Shown: one piece after another, positions 21,151 to 33,214 of the stretch
Numbering within the stretch: position 1 is the stretch's first letter
Layout: every line of letters starts with the position of its first letter
Virus record (IMG/VR): IMGVR_UViG_2537561930_000012
Strand: one strand, 5' to 3'
Origin: a virus
Lineage: Duplodnaviria > Heunggongvirae > Uroviricota > Caudoviricetes
Length of the DNA stretch: 33,214 nucleotides
Program-made: the position numbers and the translations under genes
Notes under the pieces: generated by a model
The model's input: only the letters and a program-made list of their open reading frames with translations
Databases searched by the model: none
Told to the model about the DNA's origin: nothing

Positions 21151-24548
<3,398 letters not shown>

Positions 24549-25268: not shown

Positions 25269-25278
25269 TGGGGTGAAT

Positions 25279-28200
25279 ATGGCAGTAAAGATTTCAGGTG
25301 TACTGAAAGACGGCACAGGAAAACCGGTACAGAACTGCACAATCCAGCTGAAAGCAAAACGTAACAGCACCACGGTGGTGGTGAACACGCTGGCCTCAGA
25401 AAATCCGGATGAAGCCGGGCGTTACAGCATGGACGTTGAGTACGGTCAGTACAGCGTTATTCTGTTGGTGGAAGGCTTCCCGCCGTCACATGCCGGGACC
25501 ATTACCGTGTATGAAGATTCCCGACCCGGTACGCTGAATGATTTTCTCGGTGCCATGACTGAGGATGATGCCCGTCCGGAGGCACTGCGCCGTTTTGAGC
25601 TGATGGTGGAAGAGGTGGCGCGTAACGCGTCCGTGGTGGCACAGAACACGGCAGCCGCGAAGAAGTCAGCCAGTGATGCCAGCACATCAGCCCGTGAGGC
25701 GGCAACCCATGCGACTGATGCTGCAGGCTCAGCACGCGCAGCCAGCACGTCAGCCGGACAGGCCGCGTCGTCGGCTCAGTCAGCGACTTCCAGCGCAGGA
25801 ACGGCATCAACAAAGGCCACTGAAGCATCAAAAAGTGCTGCCGCTGCAGAGTCCTCAAAAAGCGCGGCAGCTACCAGTGCCAGTGCCGCGAAAACGTCAG
25901 AAACGAATGCGGCAGCGTCACAAAAATCTGCAGCCACTTCTGCATCCGCCGCGACCACAAAGGCGTCAGAAGCTGCCACCTCAGCCCGGGATGCGGCGGC
26001 CTCAAAAGAGGCAGCGAAATCATCAGAAACGAACGCATCATCAAGCGCCAGTAGTGCCGCTTCCTCGGCAACGGCGGCAGGAAATTCCGCGAAGGCGGCA
26101 AAGACGTCCGAGACGAACGCCAGGTCTTCTGAAACGGCAGCGGGACAGAGTGCCTCAGCTGCGGCAGGCTCAAAAACAGCGGCTGCGTCGTCTGCCAGTG
26201 CCGCGTCAACAAGTGCCGGGCAGGCCTCAGCCAGTGCCACCGCCGCCGGAAAATCGGCAGAAAGTGCTGCATCGTCCGCTTCAACAGCCACAACGAAGGC
26301 TGGCGAAGCCGCTGTACAGGCCAGTGCAGCAGCGAGGGCTGCTTCCGCAGCGAAGACATCCGAAACGAACGCGAAAGCGTCGGAAACCAGCGCAGAATCC
26401 TCAAAAACGGCTGCCGCATCGTCCGCCAGTTCGGCGGCGTCATCGGCATCATCTGCGTCTGCTTCAAAAGATGAGGCGACCAGACAGGCGTCAGCAGCGA
26501 GGGGCAGCGCCACGACGGCATCCACGAAGGCGACAGAGGCTGCTGGCAGTGCGGCAGCGGCAGCACAGAGCAAAAGTACGGCAGAATCCGCAGCAACGCG
26601 CGCTGAGACAGCGGCAAAACGTGCAGAGGATATTGCATCCGCCGTGGCGCTTGAGGATGCAAGTACGACGAAAAAGGGGATAGTACAGCTCAGCAGTGCG
26701 ACCAACAGTACGTCTGAAACGCTGGCGGCAACGCCAAAGGCAGTAAAATCAGCCTATGACAATGCAGAGAAACGTCTGCAGAAAGACCAGAACGGCGCTG
26801 ATATACCCGATAAGGGACGCTTCCTGAACAACATTAACGCGGTCAGTAAAACAGACTTTGCTGATAAGCGTGGTATGCGTTATGTGCGGGTTAACGCTCC
26901 TGCAGGTGCAACATCTGGAAAATATTACCCTGTTGTTGTTATGCGTTCTGCTGGCTCAGTAAGCGAACTGGCATCAAGGGTCATTATCACCACGGCAACG
27001 CGAACCGCAGGCGATCCGATGAATAACTGCGAGTTTAACGGATTTGTTATGCCTGGTGGCTGGACTGACAGGGGGCGTTATGCTTATGGCATGTTCTGGC
27101 AATATCAAAACAATGAACGAGCCATTCACTCAATAATGATGAGTAATAAGGGCGATGATTTGCGCTCTGTGTTCTATGTTGATGGCGCTGCTTTCCCTGT
27201 TTTTGCGTTTATCGAAGATGGCCTGTCAATATCCGCACCTGGTGCTGATCTCGTTGTTAATGATACGACCTATAAGTTTGGGGCAACAAATCCGGCGACT
27301 GAATGTATCGCGGCGGACGTTATCCTTGATTTTAAGAGTGGGCGTGGTTTTTATGAGTCTCATTCGTTAATCGTTAACGATAACTTGTCGTGCAAAAAAC
27401 TTTTTGCCACAGACGAAATTGTAGCGCGTGGTGGTAATCAGATTCGAATGATAGGTGGGGAGTATGGTGCATTATGGCGTAATGATGGCGCTAAAACTTA
27501 CCTGCTGCTTACCAATCAAGGTGATGTTTATGGTGGCTGGAATACATTAAGACCGTTTGCTATTGATAACGCAACCGGCGAACTGATTATTGGAACCAAA
27601 CTGTCCGCAAGTCTGAACGGTAATGCATTAACAGCAACAAAGCTGCAAACGCCAAGACTGGTTTCTGGTGTTGAGTTTGATGGTTCCAAAGATATTACTT
27701 TAACCGCTGCGCATGTGGCTGCTTTTGCCAGAAGGGCAACTGATACATATGCCGATGCGGATGGTGGCGTTCCCTGGAATGCCGAATCAGGCGCTTACAA
27801 TGTCACCCGCTCTGGCGACAGCTATATTCTGGTTAACTTCTATACCGGAGTCGGAAGTTGCCGGACCCTGCAGATGAAGGCGCATTACAGAAATGGAGGT
27901 CTGTTCTACCGTTCCTCAAGAGATGGCTATGGTTTTGAGGAAGACTGGGCAGAAGTTTATACCTCGAAAAATCTTCCACCAGAAAGCTACCCAGTCGGTG
28001 CACCAATCCCGTGGCCATCAGATACCGTTCCGTCTGGCTATGCCCTGATGCAGGGGCAGACTTTTGACAAATCTGCATACCCGAAACTTGCAGCGGCTTA
28101 TCCGTCAGGCGTTATTCCTGATATGCGTGGCTGGACGATTAAGGGCAAGCCCGCCAGTGGTCGTGCCGTATTGTCTCAGGAACAGGACGGCATTAAATCG

Positions 28201-28677
28201 CACACCCACAGCGCCAGCGCATCCAGTACGGATTTGGGGACGAAAACCACATCGTCGTTTGATTACGGCACTAAATCCACGAATAACACCGGGGCTCATA
28301 CGCATAGTCTGAGCGGCTCTACAAGCTCGGCTGGAGCACACTCGCACGTTGATGGGCGCAGGTTTAATACAAGCACTTTTAAAGACACCTATCAGTATGG
28401 TTCTACAGCTGTCGGAAGTAACTCATACCAGGTACAAGGGGCGGTTGGTCTGGGCGTTGGTACGATGGCGAATACGAACTCTGCTGGCGCGCACACCCAC
28501 TCACTGTCCGGCACTGCTGCAAGCGCAGGCGCACACGCACATACTGTCGGTATTGGTGCACACACGCACTCCGTTGCGATTGGTTCACATGGACACACCA
28601 TCACCGTTAACGCTGCTGGTAACGCGGAAAACACCGTCAAAAACATTGCATTTAACTATATTGTGAGGCTTGCATAA
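25279..28677 (+). CDS. stf: Side tail fibre protein Stf (mosaic; expanded Ala/Ser/Thr-rich repeat region and His-rich C-terminal fibre repeats)
   Basis: About 1132 aa from ATG 25279; lambda Stf-like N-terminus ([26 protein letters not shown]...); repeated SETNA motifs; C-terminal GAHTHS-type repeats; ends ...[11 protein letters not shown]. Confidence 0.85.
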
Positions 28678-29258
28678 TGGCATTCAGAATGAGTGAACAA
28701 GCACGGACCATAAAAATTTATAATCTGCTGGCCGGAACTAATGAATTTATTGGTGAAGGTGATGCATATATTCCGCCTCATACAGGTCTGCCAGCAAACA
28801 GTACCGACATTGCACCGCCAGATATTCCAGCTGGCTTCGTGGCTGTTTTCAACAGTGATGAGTTATCGTGGCATCTCGTTGAAGATCATCGGGGTAAAAC
28901 GGTTTATGACGTGGCTTCCGGCGACGCGTTATTTATTTCTGAACTCGGCTCATTACCGGAAAATGTCACCTGGTTATCCCCGGAAGGGGAGTTTCAGAAG
29001 TGGAACGGCACAGCCTGGGTGAAAGATGCAGAAGCAGAAAAACTATTCCGGATCCGGGAGGCGGAAGAAACAAAAAACAGCCTGATGCAGGCAGCGAATG
29101 AGCATATTGCGCCACTTCAGGATGCTGTAGATCTGGAAATCGCAATGGAGGAAGAAAACTCGTTGCTGGAAGCCTGGAAAAAGTATCGGGTGTTGCTGAA
29201 CCGTGTTAATACAACAACTGCACCGGATATTGAATGGCCAGTAGCACCTATAGGGTAA
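28677..29258 (+). CDS. tfa: Tail fibre assembly protein Tfa
   Basis: 193-aa ORF overlapping stf stop (TAATG); conserved C-terminus ...[31 protein letters not shown]. Confidence 0.85.
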
Positions 29259-29845
29259 ATTCGTAATGATTACCTAAATACGTTATTCTTTTGTTCAAAA
29301 AGTGATTTTGCTATAGGTAGAGAGTATGTTCTTGGATTAAGAATAAAAAATCGCCATGAAAGAGCTTCATGGCGAGTACATAAACGTACAAAATATGATG
29401 AAAGTAGAGCGGCGTAAGCCACTATATTAAGATATGACAATAGCGAAGAAAAGTGAATAACATTTTATGGGCGTTTAATTGTTAATTATAAAAACTAGAG
29501 TGCCCGATATTGTTTATCTTGCTTTAAAATAATGTACTCAAACCAAATTTTTGAGCTAAAAGCTCAAATAATATAAATGCAATGATAATGTTTAATAAGA
29601 CAATTAGCTTGCTTTGTATTTTCATTTCGGAATACTGTTAAGTAACTTTGATGACCCTAACAATAGATCGGAATTTTCTTAGAGTCAATGGTCACTGTAT
29701 TTGCTTGCAAAGCAAATGTTTTGGTGGTTATAAGTTTTCCTAATATAGTCACCTATGCAACTTGTTCCGTGTGGAGATTAAAGGTTAAAATTTAATGCGA
29801 AGATGGAATTATATTATATTTTTTATAATTAATTTAACCTTAACA

Positions 29846-29944
29846 TCGTTGCTGGCGGCATGGAAGAAATATCGGGTCTTGCTGATGTCGTGTTGGCACT
29901 TCCTTAGTGCCGGATATCAAATGGCCAGCTGTACCTGTGGGGTG
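29846..29944 (+). repeat. Decayed second copy of the tfa 3' end (frameshifted remnant)
   Basis: About 75% nucleotide identity to 29160-29258; encodes ...[12 protein letters not shown] then, after a frame change, PDIKWPAVPVG*. Confidence 0.55.
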
Positions 29945-30604
29945 AAAACTTTATATGGATGCTATTTTTATAATAGCTGGTAAAAACTGGCCGAACTGAA
30001 ATTCACTGTTGATAAAAAAGATGTGTTTGAGTGTATGTCATTGTTTTCTTAATGGAATCCACTAGAATGCAGCGAATTTAAGAAGGTGGGTTTTTATTGG
30101 AATATAAACTACAATAATGCTCAACTCGTTCGTAGAATTGTTTTTTCTTATTTCTTGGAATGCTAACCATTATATGCATTATGGGGGCGATGCTTCCTGA
30201 TAATTTACATGATGCATACATTGAAGCAATAAATTCAATATCATTGTCATCAAAGTTAAAGCTTTCTCCGTCCATTTCAATTCCTTATGTGTTTGGCACA
30301 ACTGATGCTGTATCCCATGAGAATTTATGCAAGTTGTTATGTTTGATTTGATATTGCAATGATAATTGTAGCTAATTGTTTTCAATTGAGTGAAAGTTTA
30401 TTTCGAGTGATTAAGTCGAAAAAAAAGATTTCTCACGGTTAGTAAGCATATTAGGTCAGTATTCAGATATGAATGGTATTAATGACTAAATTTTCAATCA
30501 TATATGGATTTTTATGCTGATGAAGATGTTTTATTTGGCGATTCGTCAAGCATCTTCACTTAAGTAATCGTATATTTTAAGAGTGCAAAAGAGAAAGGGA
30601 CAAC

Positions 30605-30703
30605 GTTGCTCGCACTCTGGATTAAATATAGGGTATTGTTAAACTTCGTTGATACATAATTGTACCGGATATTGAGTGGTCTGAAGTCCCAGTCATTAAG
30701 TAA
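30605..30703 (+). repeat. Decayed third copy of the tfa 3' end (more diverged remnant)
   Basis: Alignable to 29170-29258 (...ctggattaaatatagggtattgttaaac...taccggatattgagtgg...taa); encodes LWIKYRVLLNFVDT* and, in another frame, PDIEWSEVPVIK*. Confidence 0.45.
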
Positions 30704-31051
30704 TTGTTTCGTGATATGCTGCAGAAACGTTGTATGCAATAACGTTCTGCGGTTGGCTGGTGAAATTTCGATAGTGCGGGTATTGAATGATTTCCAGCCG
30801 TTACCGATTTTATATAACTGCAGTGGAATTATTCAACACACAGGCAAAACTGAATAAGCTGAGAAAAAAGCGTGCTTTCCCAATCTGGGGCAAATCACTT
30901 CTGAATGACACCTGAAAACAGGTGGTGGACTCAAGAAGGCTTGGAATATTCTTCTTTAATGTTATGTAATTCATTGATTTTTCGTGTACGATTTTAAGAC
31001 ATTTATTCCAAGAAAAATTTTTAACTCTTTGATTTTTCGACTCTGTATCAT

Positions 31052-31113
31052 CGGTCTCGAAAACCGGAGTAGGGGCAACTCTACCGGGGGTTCAAATCCC
31101 CCTCTCTCCGCCA
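31052..31113 (+). other. 3' fragment of tRNA-Ser (serU-type, anticodon arm through CCA end), likely prophage attachment-site (attR) scar
   Basis: 62 nt CGGTCTCGAAAACCGGAGTAGGGGCAACTCTACCGGGGGTTCAAATCCCCCTCTCTCCGCCA; upstream sequence does not continue into the tRNA 5' half. Confidence 0.6.
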
Positions 31114-31697
31114 CTTTATCAATGACTTATCTCCCGACTTCCCGCCTTGCTTTTCCTAAACAGAACAATCGTAGAATATTCTTGAAGGGTTAGATCGTCA
31201 CTGTTTTCTGTTCGATACTGTGACATTCAGCACTTGATTCGCTATGGATCTGACAGGAAGGTTTTGAGCGAAAATTTGCAGTTATTCAGTCGTTTTCTTA
31301 TCGGTCACCATTATTCTTTTAGACATTGATCCTACAAAGCTGCCGCAAAGTTGGTGGTGGGAACTGAAGTTGCGTAGAGAAGGGGTCAATACCCGGAGGC
31401 AAACATGGGCTGGCAAAAGTGTAGCGGTATTAGGCGCAGCTATTTAGCCTAGTTATGTTTTATGAAAACTTGATATCATATAAGTGTCTTACTTATTGGC
31501 TGTAAATAAGTTTTTCCTAAGGAATTGTTTCTTGAGTATCATTTGTAACTGTAACGGAATTTATAATCCTTTGCTTTATTGTTACGGTATTTTTTATCAC
31601 ACCCTATTTTTTATGTGGTTTTTTATACTGAAGTTTGGCAAAGTGAACTTTATATGCATATACTTCATCCTGGTTTCAGTTAAGTTGGGTGGATGAT

Positions 31698-32441
31698 ATG
31701 GCAACTACATGTTCAGTTATATTGATTTTGGAGTCCTTTGATGTTTATTTCGGAAAAGAGAGTGTGTTTCTAGAGAAAGGTTCATCTGTACTTGTCGACT
31801 CTAGCTCTAGAGATTTTTTCCTGACATATCCTGAAAGAGTGATAGTGGCGGATTTTGGCGCTGAGTTTATTAGTCGCTATTTGAAAGCTAATAACTTAAG
31901 GGATATTTCTGATTGTAGGGAATATCCATCTTATTTAAAAATAAACTTTGCTGACTTCAGTTTAATTAAAGGATTAATTAGTTGGGCTAATCACTGTGCT
32001 GAATACATAGAAATTTTTGATGAGTCTATTGCTTTTACATGTCTCTCTGCATTTTCTTCTGAAAAACAATTTGGAGTATTTCTGTTTGAATGTTTGAAAA
32101 GCACAGAGGCTAAAGTTAAAACGATTATTCATACGGATTTATCTGCACCATGGCGTCTTAAGGATATATCATCAAGATTATATCTCAGCGAAAGTTTACT
32201 AAAGAGGAAATTGAAAGAAGAGGGGGTATCATTCAGTAAGATCATACTTGATGAGAGGATGCAAATGGCTGAATATTTACTCAGCACTCGTTGTTATCCT
32301 ATTAGTAAAGTAGCTAAGGTCTGTGGTTATGCCAGTGTCTCATACTTTACTTATGTATTTAGACGTTATTTTGGTGTTTCTCCAAGTCAATACTCTCAGA
32401 GGAGTTCAGAAAGTAAAATTCTTACTCACCAGGGAATCTGA
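31698..32441 (+). CDS. AraC/XylS-family transcriptional regulator (AppY/YdeO/GadX-like)
   Basis: About 247 aa (ATG 31698; track ORF from GTG 31689); C-terminal dual-HTH AraC signature (WRLKDISSRLYLSESLLKRKLKEEGVSFSKIILDERMQMA...CGYASVSYFTYVFRRYFGVSPSQY); AT-rich gene. Confidence 0.75.
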   Translation: MATTCSVILILESFDVYFGKESVFLEKGSSVLVDSSSRDFFLTYPERVIVADFGAEFISRYLKANNLRDISDCREYPSYLKINFADFSLIKGLISWANHCAEYIEIFDESIAFTCLSAFSSEKQFGVFLFECLKSTEAKVKTIIHTDLSAPWRLKDISSRLYLSESLLKRKLKEEGVSFSKIILDERMQMAEYLLSTRCYPISKVAKVCGYASVSYFTYVFRRYFGVSPSQYSQRSSESKILTHQGI

Positions 32442-32482
32442 TCATTGTTCTTGCCCCCTTATTTCCAGACAGGGGGTGTATC

Positions 32483-32848
32483 TTAAGTTAACGTTACCCG
32501 CTGACGTCGATATTCTCGCGGAGAGCGATAACCCAACGCACTGTGCGGATGGTTTTCATTGTAATGATCGATCGCCACTGCAAGATTATGCAATGCCGTT
32601 CTTACATTCGGTTTCGGCATGAACGCGATGTAGTCTTCCTTCATCGTTTTCACGAACCTTTCTGCCATTCCATTACTCTGAGGACTGCTGATTGCCGTTG
32701 TGCAGGGCTCCAGATTCAACTCTCTGGCGAACTGCCATGTTTCATGCGCTCTATACGCTGAACCGTTATCTGTCAGCCACTGGATGGACTGTTCCGGTAC
32801 TTTATCGCCAAAGCGTTTTTCTATCGCTCCTAACATGACATCCTGCAC
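32483..32848 (-). mobile_element. Truncated IS3-family (IS2-like) transposase OrfB, C-terminal half of the DDE/rve catalytic domain
   Basis: 121-aa minus-strand ORF with DNGSAYRA...[11 protein letters not shown]...[14 protein letters not shown]; the N-terminal half and orfA of this copy are missing. Confidence 0.7.
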
Positions 32849-32992
32849 TGTCGCTTTATCGTAACCTCCCGTGCTTGCGGCCCAGTCTATGGCTTCACGA
32901 TCGCAACAGTCCAGGGCGAACGTAACACGCAGTTTTGAATCGCCACGGGTTTAACAGACACCTCAGAGTCATTTAAGATGGCTTAAAGAGAG

Positions 32993-33214
32993 GTGCCCAT
33001 GAGCGGTAAGCGTTATCCCGAAGAGTTTAAAACTGAAGCAGTCAAACAGGTTGTTGATCGCGGTTATTCTGTTGCCAGCGTTGCAACACGTCTCGATATC
33101 ACCACCCACAGCCTTTATGCCTGGATAAAGAAGTACGGTCCGGATTACTCCACTTTTTCATCAAGCCAATCCGCCCACCACTGCATCATTTCTCTGCGCT
33201 TATCGAGATACTGA
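32993..33214 (+). CDS. IS3-family transposase OrfA (HTH), opposite orientation to the adjacent OrfB fragment; C-terminal region looks aberrant
   Basis: 73-aa ORF MPMSGKRYPEEFKTEAVKQVVDRGYSVASVATRLDITTHSLYAWIKKYGPD... then non-conserved tail before stop at 33212-33214. Confidence 0.65.
   Translation: MPMSGKRYPEEFKTEAVKQVVDRGYSVASVATRLDITTHSLYAWIKKYGPDYSTFSSSQSAHHCIISLRLSRY

Follow-up and report, generated by a model that had tools for sequence, protein, structure and literature searches.

Tail-fibre assembly gene relics and a small YncL-like gene in the AT-rich interval behind tfa of a lambda-like prophage

Introduction

What fills the stretch of about 1.8 kb between the last late gene of a lambda-like prophage and a fragment of a tRNA gene: the debris of discarded tail-fibre genes, or DNA that still encodes something? 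The stretch (positions 29259-31051) belongs to IMG/VR record IMGVR_UViG_2537561930_000012, a tailed-phage sequence of 33,214 nucleotides (nt) that was analysed whole and is called the window here. The window holds the late region of a lambda-like prophage, with lysis genes, terminase, head and tail genes, J, lom, stf (25273-28677) and tfa. An initial annotation had described the interval behind tfa as AT-rich and without open reading frames (ORFs) of more than about 70 amino acids (aa). The description is accurate: the GC fraction is 0.285-0.41 in each 200-nt block fully inside 29300-30999 and 0.345-0.42 in the blocks overlapping the tfa end, compared with 0.43-0.58 in stf and tfa, and the longest ORFs within the interval have 68, 65, 65, 63 and 62 aa. 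Around the two truncated tfa ends described below, GC is 29-38%. The same annotation had proposed that the interval is a stack of tail-fibre cassettes which were replaced and then decayed, the DNA between them possibly being remnants of foreign fibre genes or of morons.

From left to right, the order is tfa, an AT-rich segment (S1), a truncated tfa end (c2), a second AT-rich segment (S2), another truncated tfa end (c3), two further segments (S3 and S4), the 3′ fragment of serU and 278 bp of chromosome. Beyond the captured chromosome lie an AraC regulator, insertion sequence (IS) fragments and then the present lambda-type attR. The most probable reading, to which a probability of about 0.8 is assigned, is that the interval is a non-essential cargo slot of the b region, built by repeated recombination at the tail-fibre end. 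On this reading the two tfa relics are scars, c2 of an older tfa and c3 of one older yet, S1 is a moron and S2 carries a probable gene.

Two truncated tfa ends of different origin

The intact tfa (28677-29258, + strand), taken from the ORF list as the final gene of the late operon, encodes 193 aa and is 94% identical to the tfa genes of lambda, of E. coli strain YPE10 (prophage at prfC) and of DLP12. Its last 113 nt served as the blastn query against the whole window and against the region alone. Only two significant extra copies were found in the whole window, both on the + strand, all other matches having E ≥0.4. The first copy, c2, matches at 29846-29946 (72% over 101 nt; E 2e-10 in the whole window, 8e-11 in the region) and the second, c3, at 30604-30679 (74% over 77 nt; E 4e-8 and 1e-8, respectively), and a repeat search as well as MAFFT give the same registers for both. 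With tblastn, residues ~156-193 of Tfa match each copy in two different frames; c2 and c3 are thus both frameshifted, and c3 also contains an in-frame TAA.

Two further frameshifted copies of the tfa 3′ end in the same orientation had been noticed from the sequence alone; blastn, the repeat search, MAFFT and the protein-level matches all recover them, and the observation holds. The proposed start of c2 at 29846 also stands. The second copy had been placed at 30605-30703 and is slightly longer: comparison with the closer alleles of lambda, SPF_0923 and mEp460 lengthens it to 30584-30703 and sets the start of c2 at 29843-29846. By blastn and allele comparison, c2 (29843-29946, + strand) stems from a tfa of the window/YPE10 type, of which it retains the final ~100 nt, frameshifted by a 1-nt insertion, while c3 (30584-30703, + strand) represents the last ~121 nt of a lambda-type tfa with a frameshift and the TAA.

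Upstream of c2 or c3 no residual tfa similarity was found, local-alignment scores there lying within the range of shuffled sequence. Because of this, c2 and c3 are regarded as truncated 3′ ends, and whole decayed tfa genes, considered as an alternative, were ruled out. Both have the C-terminal homology, and neither has a full uninterrupted tfa frame (Caudo_TAP, PF02413) with the N-terminal domain. PHROG tail-assembly families match c3 in a six-frame scan, and PGAP calls the c2 equivalent in strain FCI51 a frameshifted partial tfa pseudogene. A fourth tfa relic was suspected by eye at 30741-30815; multiple alignment gave no support for it, and the sequence is part of S3.

The two relics end differently. 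The end of c2 resembles the window/YPE10 type (PVG before the stop codon), that of c3 the lambda type (E before the stop codon, then TAATCGT). Judged by these endings, c2 and c3 are relics of two different tfa alleles, and since they derive from different alleles, a local duplication of the resident tfa is excluded. The three tfa ends form direct repeats. Between the window and YPE10, c3 is 88% identical and its flanking DNA 91-93%; c2 is 71-73% identical to intact tfa ends, with ~80% for the adjacent S2. The decay of c3 is biased from GC to AT by 13:4. As the relics are no better conserved than their flanks and c3 decays from GC to AT, they are read as scars and not as selected sites.

In other phages, an intact tfa and what follows it run collinear with each relic and the DNA behind it, the partners being YPE10 for c2-S2-c3-S3 and lambda, SPF_0923 and mEp460 for c3-S3. 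In YPE10, an intact tfa is followed by DNA aligning with 29846-30812 of the window (82% over 980 nt); c2 corresponds to the intact tfa end of YPE10, and S2, c3 and S3 come after it in the same order. In lambda, the tfa end and the hairpin behind it align at 81% with c3 and the first part of S3. Salmonella phage SPF_0923 has an intact tfa, then the entire S3, then sitD. In mEp460, a 3′ tfa relic stands directly after stf and is followed by S3 and dinI. The order in BH100 is tfa-S1-S3-sitABCD, without a relic. IBS28 has the arrangement of the window over 28600-30803, but at the ydfJ attachment site. Finally, phage ev099 carries tfa-S1, 86 nt of its own DNA and then the window sequence from 30857 on; this shared part, which comprises the tRNA fragment, AraC gene and IS fragments, lies upstream of the ev099 integrase.

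A YncL-like small gene in segment S1

S1 (29259-29842) is an AT-rich segment, probably a moron, between tfa and an older tfa end, delimited by its presence and absence in genomes and phages. It is carried by the phages ev099, mEp332 and PhiR70_1 and also by IBS28 and BH100, and lambda, YPE10 and SPF_0923, with the same tfa, lack it cleanly. Its GC content is ~30%, versus ~50% in the surrounding phage genes.

On the - strand of S1 lies an unannotated 33-aa gene for a YncL-like small membrane protein (29524-29625), with the sequence MKIQSKLIVLLNIIIAFILFELLAQKFGLSTLF, which was recognised by selection, profile match and alignment. The strain FCI51 carries an S1 lineage only ~80% identical to that of the window, inside a Rac remnant, and this lineage keeps the start, the stop and the length of the ORF. 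The two alleles differ by 19 nt changes (11 at third positions and 1 at a second position), which result in 5 conservative aa changes and a ratio of nonsynonymous to synonymous substitution (dN/dS) of 0.075. None of 20000 random placements of 19 substitutions matched the observed constraint, and half of the placements created a stop. In addition, the ORF is intact in all 73 copies among the loci fetched, which comprise six nucleotide alleles. By these comparisons of sequence, the 33-aa ORF is under strong purifying selection.

The peptide matches the NCBIfam profile NF000537 (YncL) with 25 bits and an E value of 1.3e-5 over profile positions 1-28 of 30; a second allele scores 23.5 bits (E 3.7e-5). 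A gapless alignment with K-12 YncL over residues 1-28 has 11/28 identities and a score of 60, compared with 20 ± 4 for the shuffle control, whose maximum was 42 in 5000. The protein also has the form of the YncL family, with ~30 aa, one hydrophobic helix and collinear similarity over the full length. On the profile match and the alignment, it is a YncL homologue and not an equivalog. YncL itself is a stress-induced small membrane protein; when produced, it depolarises the membrane, leads to nucleoid condensation and reduces protein synthesis (PMC12542507). By analogy with YncL, we infer that a lysogen would make a small membrane-active peptide from S1.

The gene appears to have its own signals. 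A sigma-70 promoter-like site, TTGACT-17-TATTGT (29660-29688, - strand), picked out by consensus match and conservation, lies ~30 nt upstream of the ORF. Together with a terminator whose stem has 11 bp, this site brackets the ORF on the - strand; both are conserved, and both are consensus matches only. Between the two S1 lineages, identity is 90% in the promoter, 81% in the ORF and 93% in a module at the 3′ end, with 64-74% in the spacers between them. Judged by these features, S1 is probably transcribed on its own, from the strand opposite to tfa, as expected of a moron. The initial annotation had named an intact gene missed in the interval as grounds for giving up the decayed-DNA reading; the 33-aa gene is such a gene, and for S1 that reading fails.

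No annotation covers the 33-aa ORF among the listed RefSeq records, and PhiR70_1 annotates only a different nearby ORF. A collection of 15 billion protein sequences holds only two unnamed metagenome-derived copies of the peptide (ENA, JGI/IMG) and none from NCBI or UniRef. Degenerate DNA patterns for the ORF detected 48 IMG/VR loci; over the GTDB species representatives the patterns returned no 33-aa copy, only one chance match with a stop codon. A tblastn search of phages with the peptide gave no match though ev099 encodes it, probably owing to low-complexity masking. On the + strand of S1, no promoter/terminator pair for an antisense RNA was detected, and Rfam matched no antitoxin RNA; the peptide itself is small and hydrophobic, as type I toxins are. 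PADLOC matched no defence system among the small ORFs.

The 3′ end of the S1 transcript and the question of small RNAs

The S1 transcript would end in a conserved 3′-terminal RNA module (29345-29430, - strand), delimited by terminator scan, conservation and fold. It consists of two small hairpins, a U-rich stretch and an intrinsic terminator, whose 11-bp stem (29351-29375, - strand) is followed by UUUUUUAUUC. Over its 86 nt, the module is 93% identical between the lineages, versus 70% in the adjacent 3′ untranslated region (3′UTR), and it is a candidate 3′UTR-derived small RNA (sRNA). It could be imagined that the S1 mRNA has a dual function, encoding a depolarising YncL-like peptide for dormancy, abortive infection or superinfection exclusion in the lysogen and giving rise to an Hfq-type 3′UTR sRNA that regulates host genes; this is a doubtful proposal.

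As to known sRNAs, Rfam at E ≤1 returned only the family IS009, plus weak or sub-threshold matches (a sub-threshold Plastid-psbI-rps4 over the tRNA fragment, and weak matches to tmRNA and sX4). A lead from a preprint reporting IS009 near PasB was dropped: the window lacks the probe sequence, and PasB of E2348/69 lies between gpI and gpJ.

A probable orphan gene in segment S2

S2 (29947-30583) is AT-rich DNA that stands directly after the intact tfa in YPE10, to which its left part is ~80% and its right part (from ~30350) ~93% identical. S2 has no match among the deposited phages in INPHARED. On its - strand lies a 65-aa ORF (30078-30275; RefSeq WP_001438255.1, hypothetical protein), preceded by an AAGGA ribosome-binding site that is conserved. 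The ORF has the same length in YPE10 despite 40 nt differences, with a dN/dS of 0.31 (permutation P ~0.004). Its relatives, beyond low-complexity chance hits, are from E. coli only. The AlphaFold2 single-sequence model is a generic three-helix bundle with a mean confidence score (pLDDT) of 69. On this evidence, S2 probably encodes a 65-aa orphan gene.

Traces of fibre genes or other families in the AT-rich DNA were sought with Pfam and PHROGs on all ORFs of at least 33 aa, which gave nothing, and with a six-frame PHROGs scan, which found tfa at c3 only. What remains of the proposed stack of replaced and decayed fibre cassettes is therefore the two tfa relics and the collinear DNA trailing them, whereas the notion that the intervening DNA is decayed fibre genes is not borne out by the PHROGs scan; the segments are of the kind usually found behind tfa, in the slot for cargo or morons. 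Likewise, of the suggestion that the AT-rich DNA consists of foreign fibre or moron remnants, the fibre part found no support in the family scans and the moron part holds for S1, albeit for an intact moron and not a remnant.

Occurrence and cargo of the post-tfa slot

Frequencies were counted among 5426 complete E. coli genomes. S1 is present in 831 and S2 in 591, and 571 genomes cover at least 80% of the query 29100-31200; in the listed records, the stretch covered is 29100-30812, from the tfa end to S3. In relatives, the cargo of the slot is sitABCD (BH100, SPF_0923), dinI (YPE10, mEp460) or ea47 (lambda).

The iron/manganese transporter sitABCD follows directly after S3 in BH100 and SPF_0923. 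In BH100 and K-15KW01, the YncL-like gene and sitABCD are both found in the same post-tfa slot. FCI51 has sitABCD after an efflux gene of the major facilitator superfamily, with the S1-c2 pair stranded in the Rac remnant; the YncL-like gene and sitABCD are within ~2.5 kb of each other there, and the remnant has no intact tfa. The mEp460 genome has no annotated tfa, its stf being followed directly by the tfa 3′ relic of ~123-140 nt (mEp460 locus 2463-2650), which suggests either a fibre that needs no Tfa or an assembly gene that is unannotated or defective.

Proposed history and alternative explanations

The stack could have arisen as follows. A new stf-tfa module with its trailing cargo would enter from the left, and if its right-hand joint lay within the tfa already present, the 3′ end of that gene would be stranded behind the incoming cargo. 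Another possibility is that a relic with cargo in front of it recombined homologously with the intact tfa end of another phage. The stranded 3′ end would then decay, as nothing would select for it. The role of the tfa 3′ end as a recombination joint, put forward in the initial annotation, is documented: lambda recombines with the Rac and Qin prophages inside the stf-tfa homology in experiments, and a marker inserted between tfa and ea47 is harmless to lambda (PMC3945230).

Several points weigh against this reading. BH100 joins S1 to S3 with no tfa relic at the joint, so relics are not an obligatory by-product. Genomes of the YPE10 type could be deletion derivatives, produced by recombination between tfa and c2, and not ancestors. 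The 25 bits of the 33-aa ORF are under the NF000537 cut-off of 35 bits, and the ORF is without a Shine-Dalgarno sequence. The two strands of S1 have similar folding scores (z -3.9 and -3.5), and the structure signal thus favours neither of them. As for the 65-aa ORF, many database versions are truncated, its dN/dS is only moderately low and the confidence of its model is moderate.

The whole interval might also be neutral junk, relics and intervening DNA alike decaying while they hitch-hike with the prophage. The low GC content and the GC-to-AT decay of c3 fit this idea, as do the absence of any Pfam or PHROG family on any ORF apart from the tfa traces and promoter- and terminator-like sites that are no commoner than in shuffled sequence. 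However, neutral decay would have to accommodate a 33-aa ORF that keeps its length and start, has a dN/dS of 0.075 unmatched in 20000 placements and resembles YncL, a promoter and a 3′ module that form conserved islands, and a 65-aa ORF that is intact in a lineage only 80% identical, and is for these reasons considered unlikely. Less probable still is that the tfa 3′ copies are maintained as recombination sites, either for the shuffling of cassettes or as the ends of a programmed tail-fibre switch similar to Gin/Cin/Pin/Min. It is true that the variant units of the window, YPE10 and SPF_0923 have their edges at tfa 3′ sequences, that the S1-c2 joint is common to two S1 lineages otherwise only 80% alike and that tfa homology has been used for crossover in experiments (PMC3945230). 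Yet c2 and c3 are no better conserved than their flanks and carry frameshifts and a stop, all tfa ends are in direct orientation, and BH100 and ev099 have S1 without c2. Moreover, no invertase ORF is evident in the ORF list over 26000-33214, where the family scans covered the small ORFs of 29259-31051 and the AraC gene only.

The Rfam matches raise the further idea that c2 and c3 are sRNA genes of the family IS009, since cmscan places RF02111 at 30470-30661 (39 bits) and at 29830-29905 (32 bits). Both scores are far under the gathering score of 117, and the full-score matches are the coding ends of intact tfa genes: 209 bits at 29020-29218 of the window, which is the last ~200 nt of tfa, and 228 bits on K-12 tfaD. 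Rfam IS009 thus appears to be the coding sequence of the tfa 3′ end. With no promoter- or terminator-like site flanking c2 or c3 on the + strand, sRNA genes at these positions are the most improbable of the explanations discussed. A cargo slot with recombination scars remains the preferred reading, and the sequence argues that the interval is not uniformly decayed: S1 is a well-supported small-protein moron, and a second small gene is probably present.

S3, S4 and the fossil attachment site

S3 (30704-30812, + strand), delimited by alignment across phages, is a conserved post-tfa element. It stands directly after tfa in SPF_0923 and follows tfa relics or other genes in YPE10, BH100, mEp460, IBS28 and MS20675; lambda has the hairpin only. 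This hairpin (30718-30752) has a fixed loop, GTATGCAA, and a stem with compensatory changes between phages, and it is also found after other genes in MS20675 and in an O157 element. A second stem, GGCTGG...CCAGCC (30756-30799), occurs in the S3-bearing loci and not in lambda or the O157 element. Rfam has no family that matches the S3 hairpins. S3 may be a 3′ end structure, possibly a terminator, of the late operon.

S4 (30813-31051) corresponds to right-end DNA of lambdoid prophages integrating at serU, as seen from a junction match: 30747-31391 is 97.7% identical to the right prophage/chromosome junction of a serU-integrated prophage in strain MS20675. It is followed by the 3′ 62 nt of tRNA-Ser (serU; 31052-31113, + strand), the core of a fossil attR identified by tRNA and genome matches, and by a piece of the core E. 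coli chromosome, 278 bp long (31114-31391), that belongs downstream of serU and is now located in the phage b region. The tRNA-Ser 3′ fragment had been noticed in the initial annotation and is real; ARAGORN does not call it, but 31052-31113 matches a 62-nt tRNA-Ser pseudogene annotated in phage SerU-LTIIb as well as chromosomal serU. The stretch 31052-31391 adjoins tRNA-Ser in 5423 of the 5426 genomes, with a match of ~97%. Because of this, and because 30747-31391 matches a serU-prophage junction, the sequence identifies the tRNA-Ser fragment as a fossil attR with attached chromosome that was captured by the phage, and not as the present attachment site. The junction is left over from an imprecise excision or from recombination of one prophage with another. 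The same block is present in the isolated phage ev099, and in a pinE-containing element of O157:H7 it is joined to the same AraC gene.

The present right end can be located in a relative of 99% identity (NZ_AP042598), where it adjoins ybhB-bioA, the lambda attachment site. The AT-rich gene for the AraC-family regulator (31689-32441, + strand; PHROG 1450, E 1e-94; HTH_AraC) may belong with the prophage-encoded AraC-like regulators PatE/Psr of enterohaemorrhagic E. coli (EHEC). Fragments of the IS3 family occupy 32483-33214, between the AraC gene and the prophage end; they comprise an integrase-core ORF (- strand) and a truncated transposase OrfA (+ strand), both of which are annotated as pseudogenes in the 99%-identical record.

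Two further observations concern the rest of the window. The tail-tip gene J (21151-24548) is split into two overlapping ORFs of 328 and 834 aa; aligned with an intact gpJ of 3399 nt, it shows a single-base indel, which may mean either a tail-defective prophage or an error in the sequence. Four tandem tRNA genes (Met-CAU, Lys-UUU, Thr-UGU and Gly-UCC) lie at 2396-2705 in the late regulatory region, upstream of the lysis genes.

Implications

The tfa scars are a textbook-style record of the swapping of tail-fibre and cargo modules in lambdoid phages, a known phenomenon and as such unsurprising. That a viable phage, ev099, still carries the old attachment-site junction with host DNA adds to this record. 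The practical gain is an unannotated, prophage-borne relative of YncL that occurs in ~15% of complete E. coli genomes and in isolated phages. Because YncL depolarises the membrane and silences metabolism, the phage-carried copy is a candidate small protein for lysogenic conversion or phage defence. Prophage ends that seem poor in ORFs hence merit screening for very small genes.

Comparison with known systems

The direct repeats of the window differ from the invertible segments Gin/Cin/Pin/Min, which have inverted ends and an adjacent serine invertase, none being evident in the ORF list here. They also differ from the O157 locus, in which pinE adjoins the tfa pair.

The window also resembles the lambda b region, morons and the effector loci of EHEC, with which it shares a dispensable slot between the tail-fibre genes and attP/attR for low-GC cargo; as there, the cargo is probably transcribed independently. 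The moron concept is reportedly that of Hendrix and Juhala, and the exchangeable effector loci of EHEC lambdoid prophages are said to have been described by Tobe et al. in PNAS in 2006. Unlike those loci, the slot of the window has no effector or known virulence genes; what it carries are genes for a 33-aa membrane protein, a 65-aa orphan and an AraC regulator, along with fossil host DNA.

With K-12 YncL (b4598; 31 aa), the 33-aa protein aligns without gaps from Met1 to Gly28, including S5, N12, L19-F20 and the [KR]-F-G end. The window gene is prophage-borne, whereas that of YncL is core-chromosomal; yncL has the Shine-Dalgarno sequence AAGGTGG that the window ORF lacks, and the flanking RNA is unrelated.

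The right end of DLP12 in K-12 (tfaD-ybcY′-tfaX-appY) is the same kind of stack as that of the window. In DLP12, a largely intact tfa is followed by ~0.7 kb with the remnant of a gene on the opposite strand and then by a tfa 3′ fragment that stops prematurely (tfaX); AT-rich DNA and a regulator of the AraC family come next. The tfaX region of DLP12 is 86% identical to the tfa 3′ end of the window (29099-29238), and the tfaD end is 72% identical to c3 plus the hairpin. The differences are that DLP12 has one relic and the window two, that the intervening DNA is unrelated (ybcY′ versus S1/S2) and that DLP12 has no YncL-like gene at the S1 position. AppY, encoded after tfaX, and the AraC protein of the window occupy equivalent positions but are only 29% identical. 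Since the K-12 chromosome thus holds a stack of the same kind, the relic stack of the window can be considered an ordinary phenomenon.

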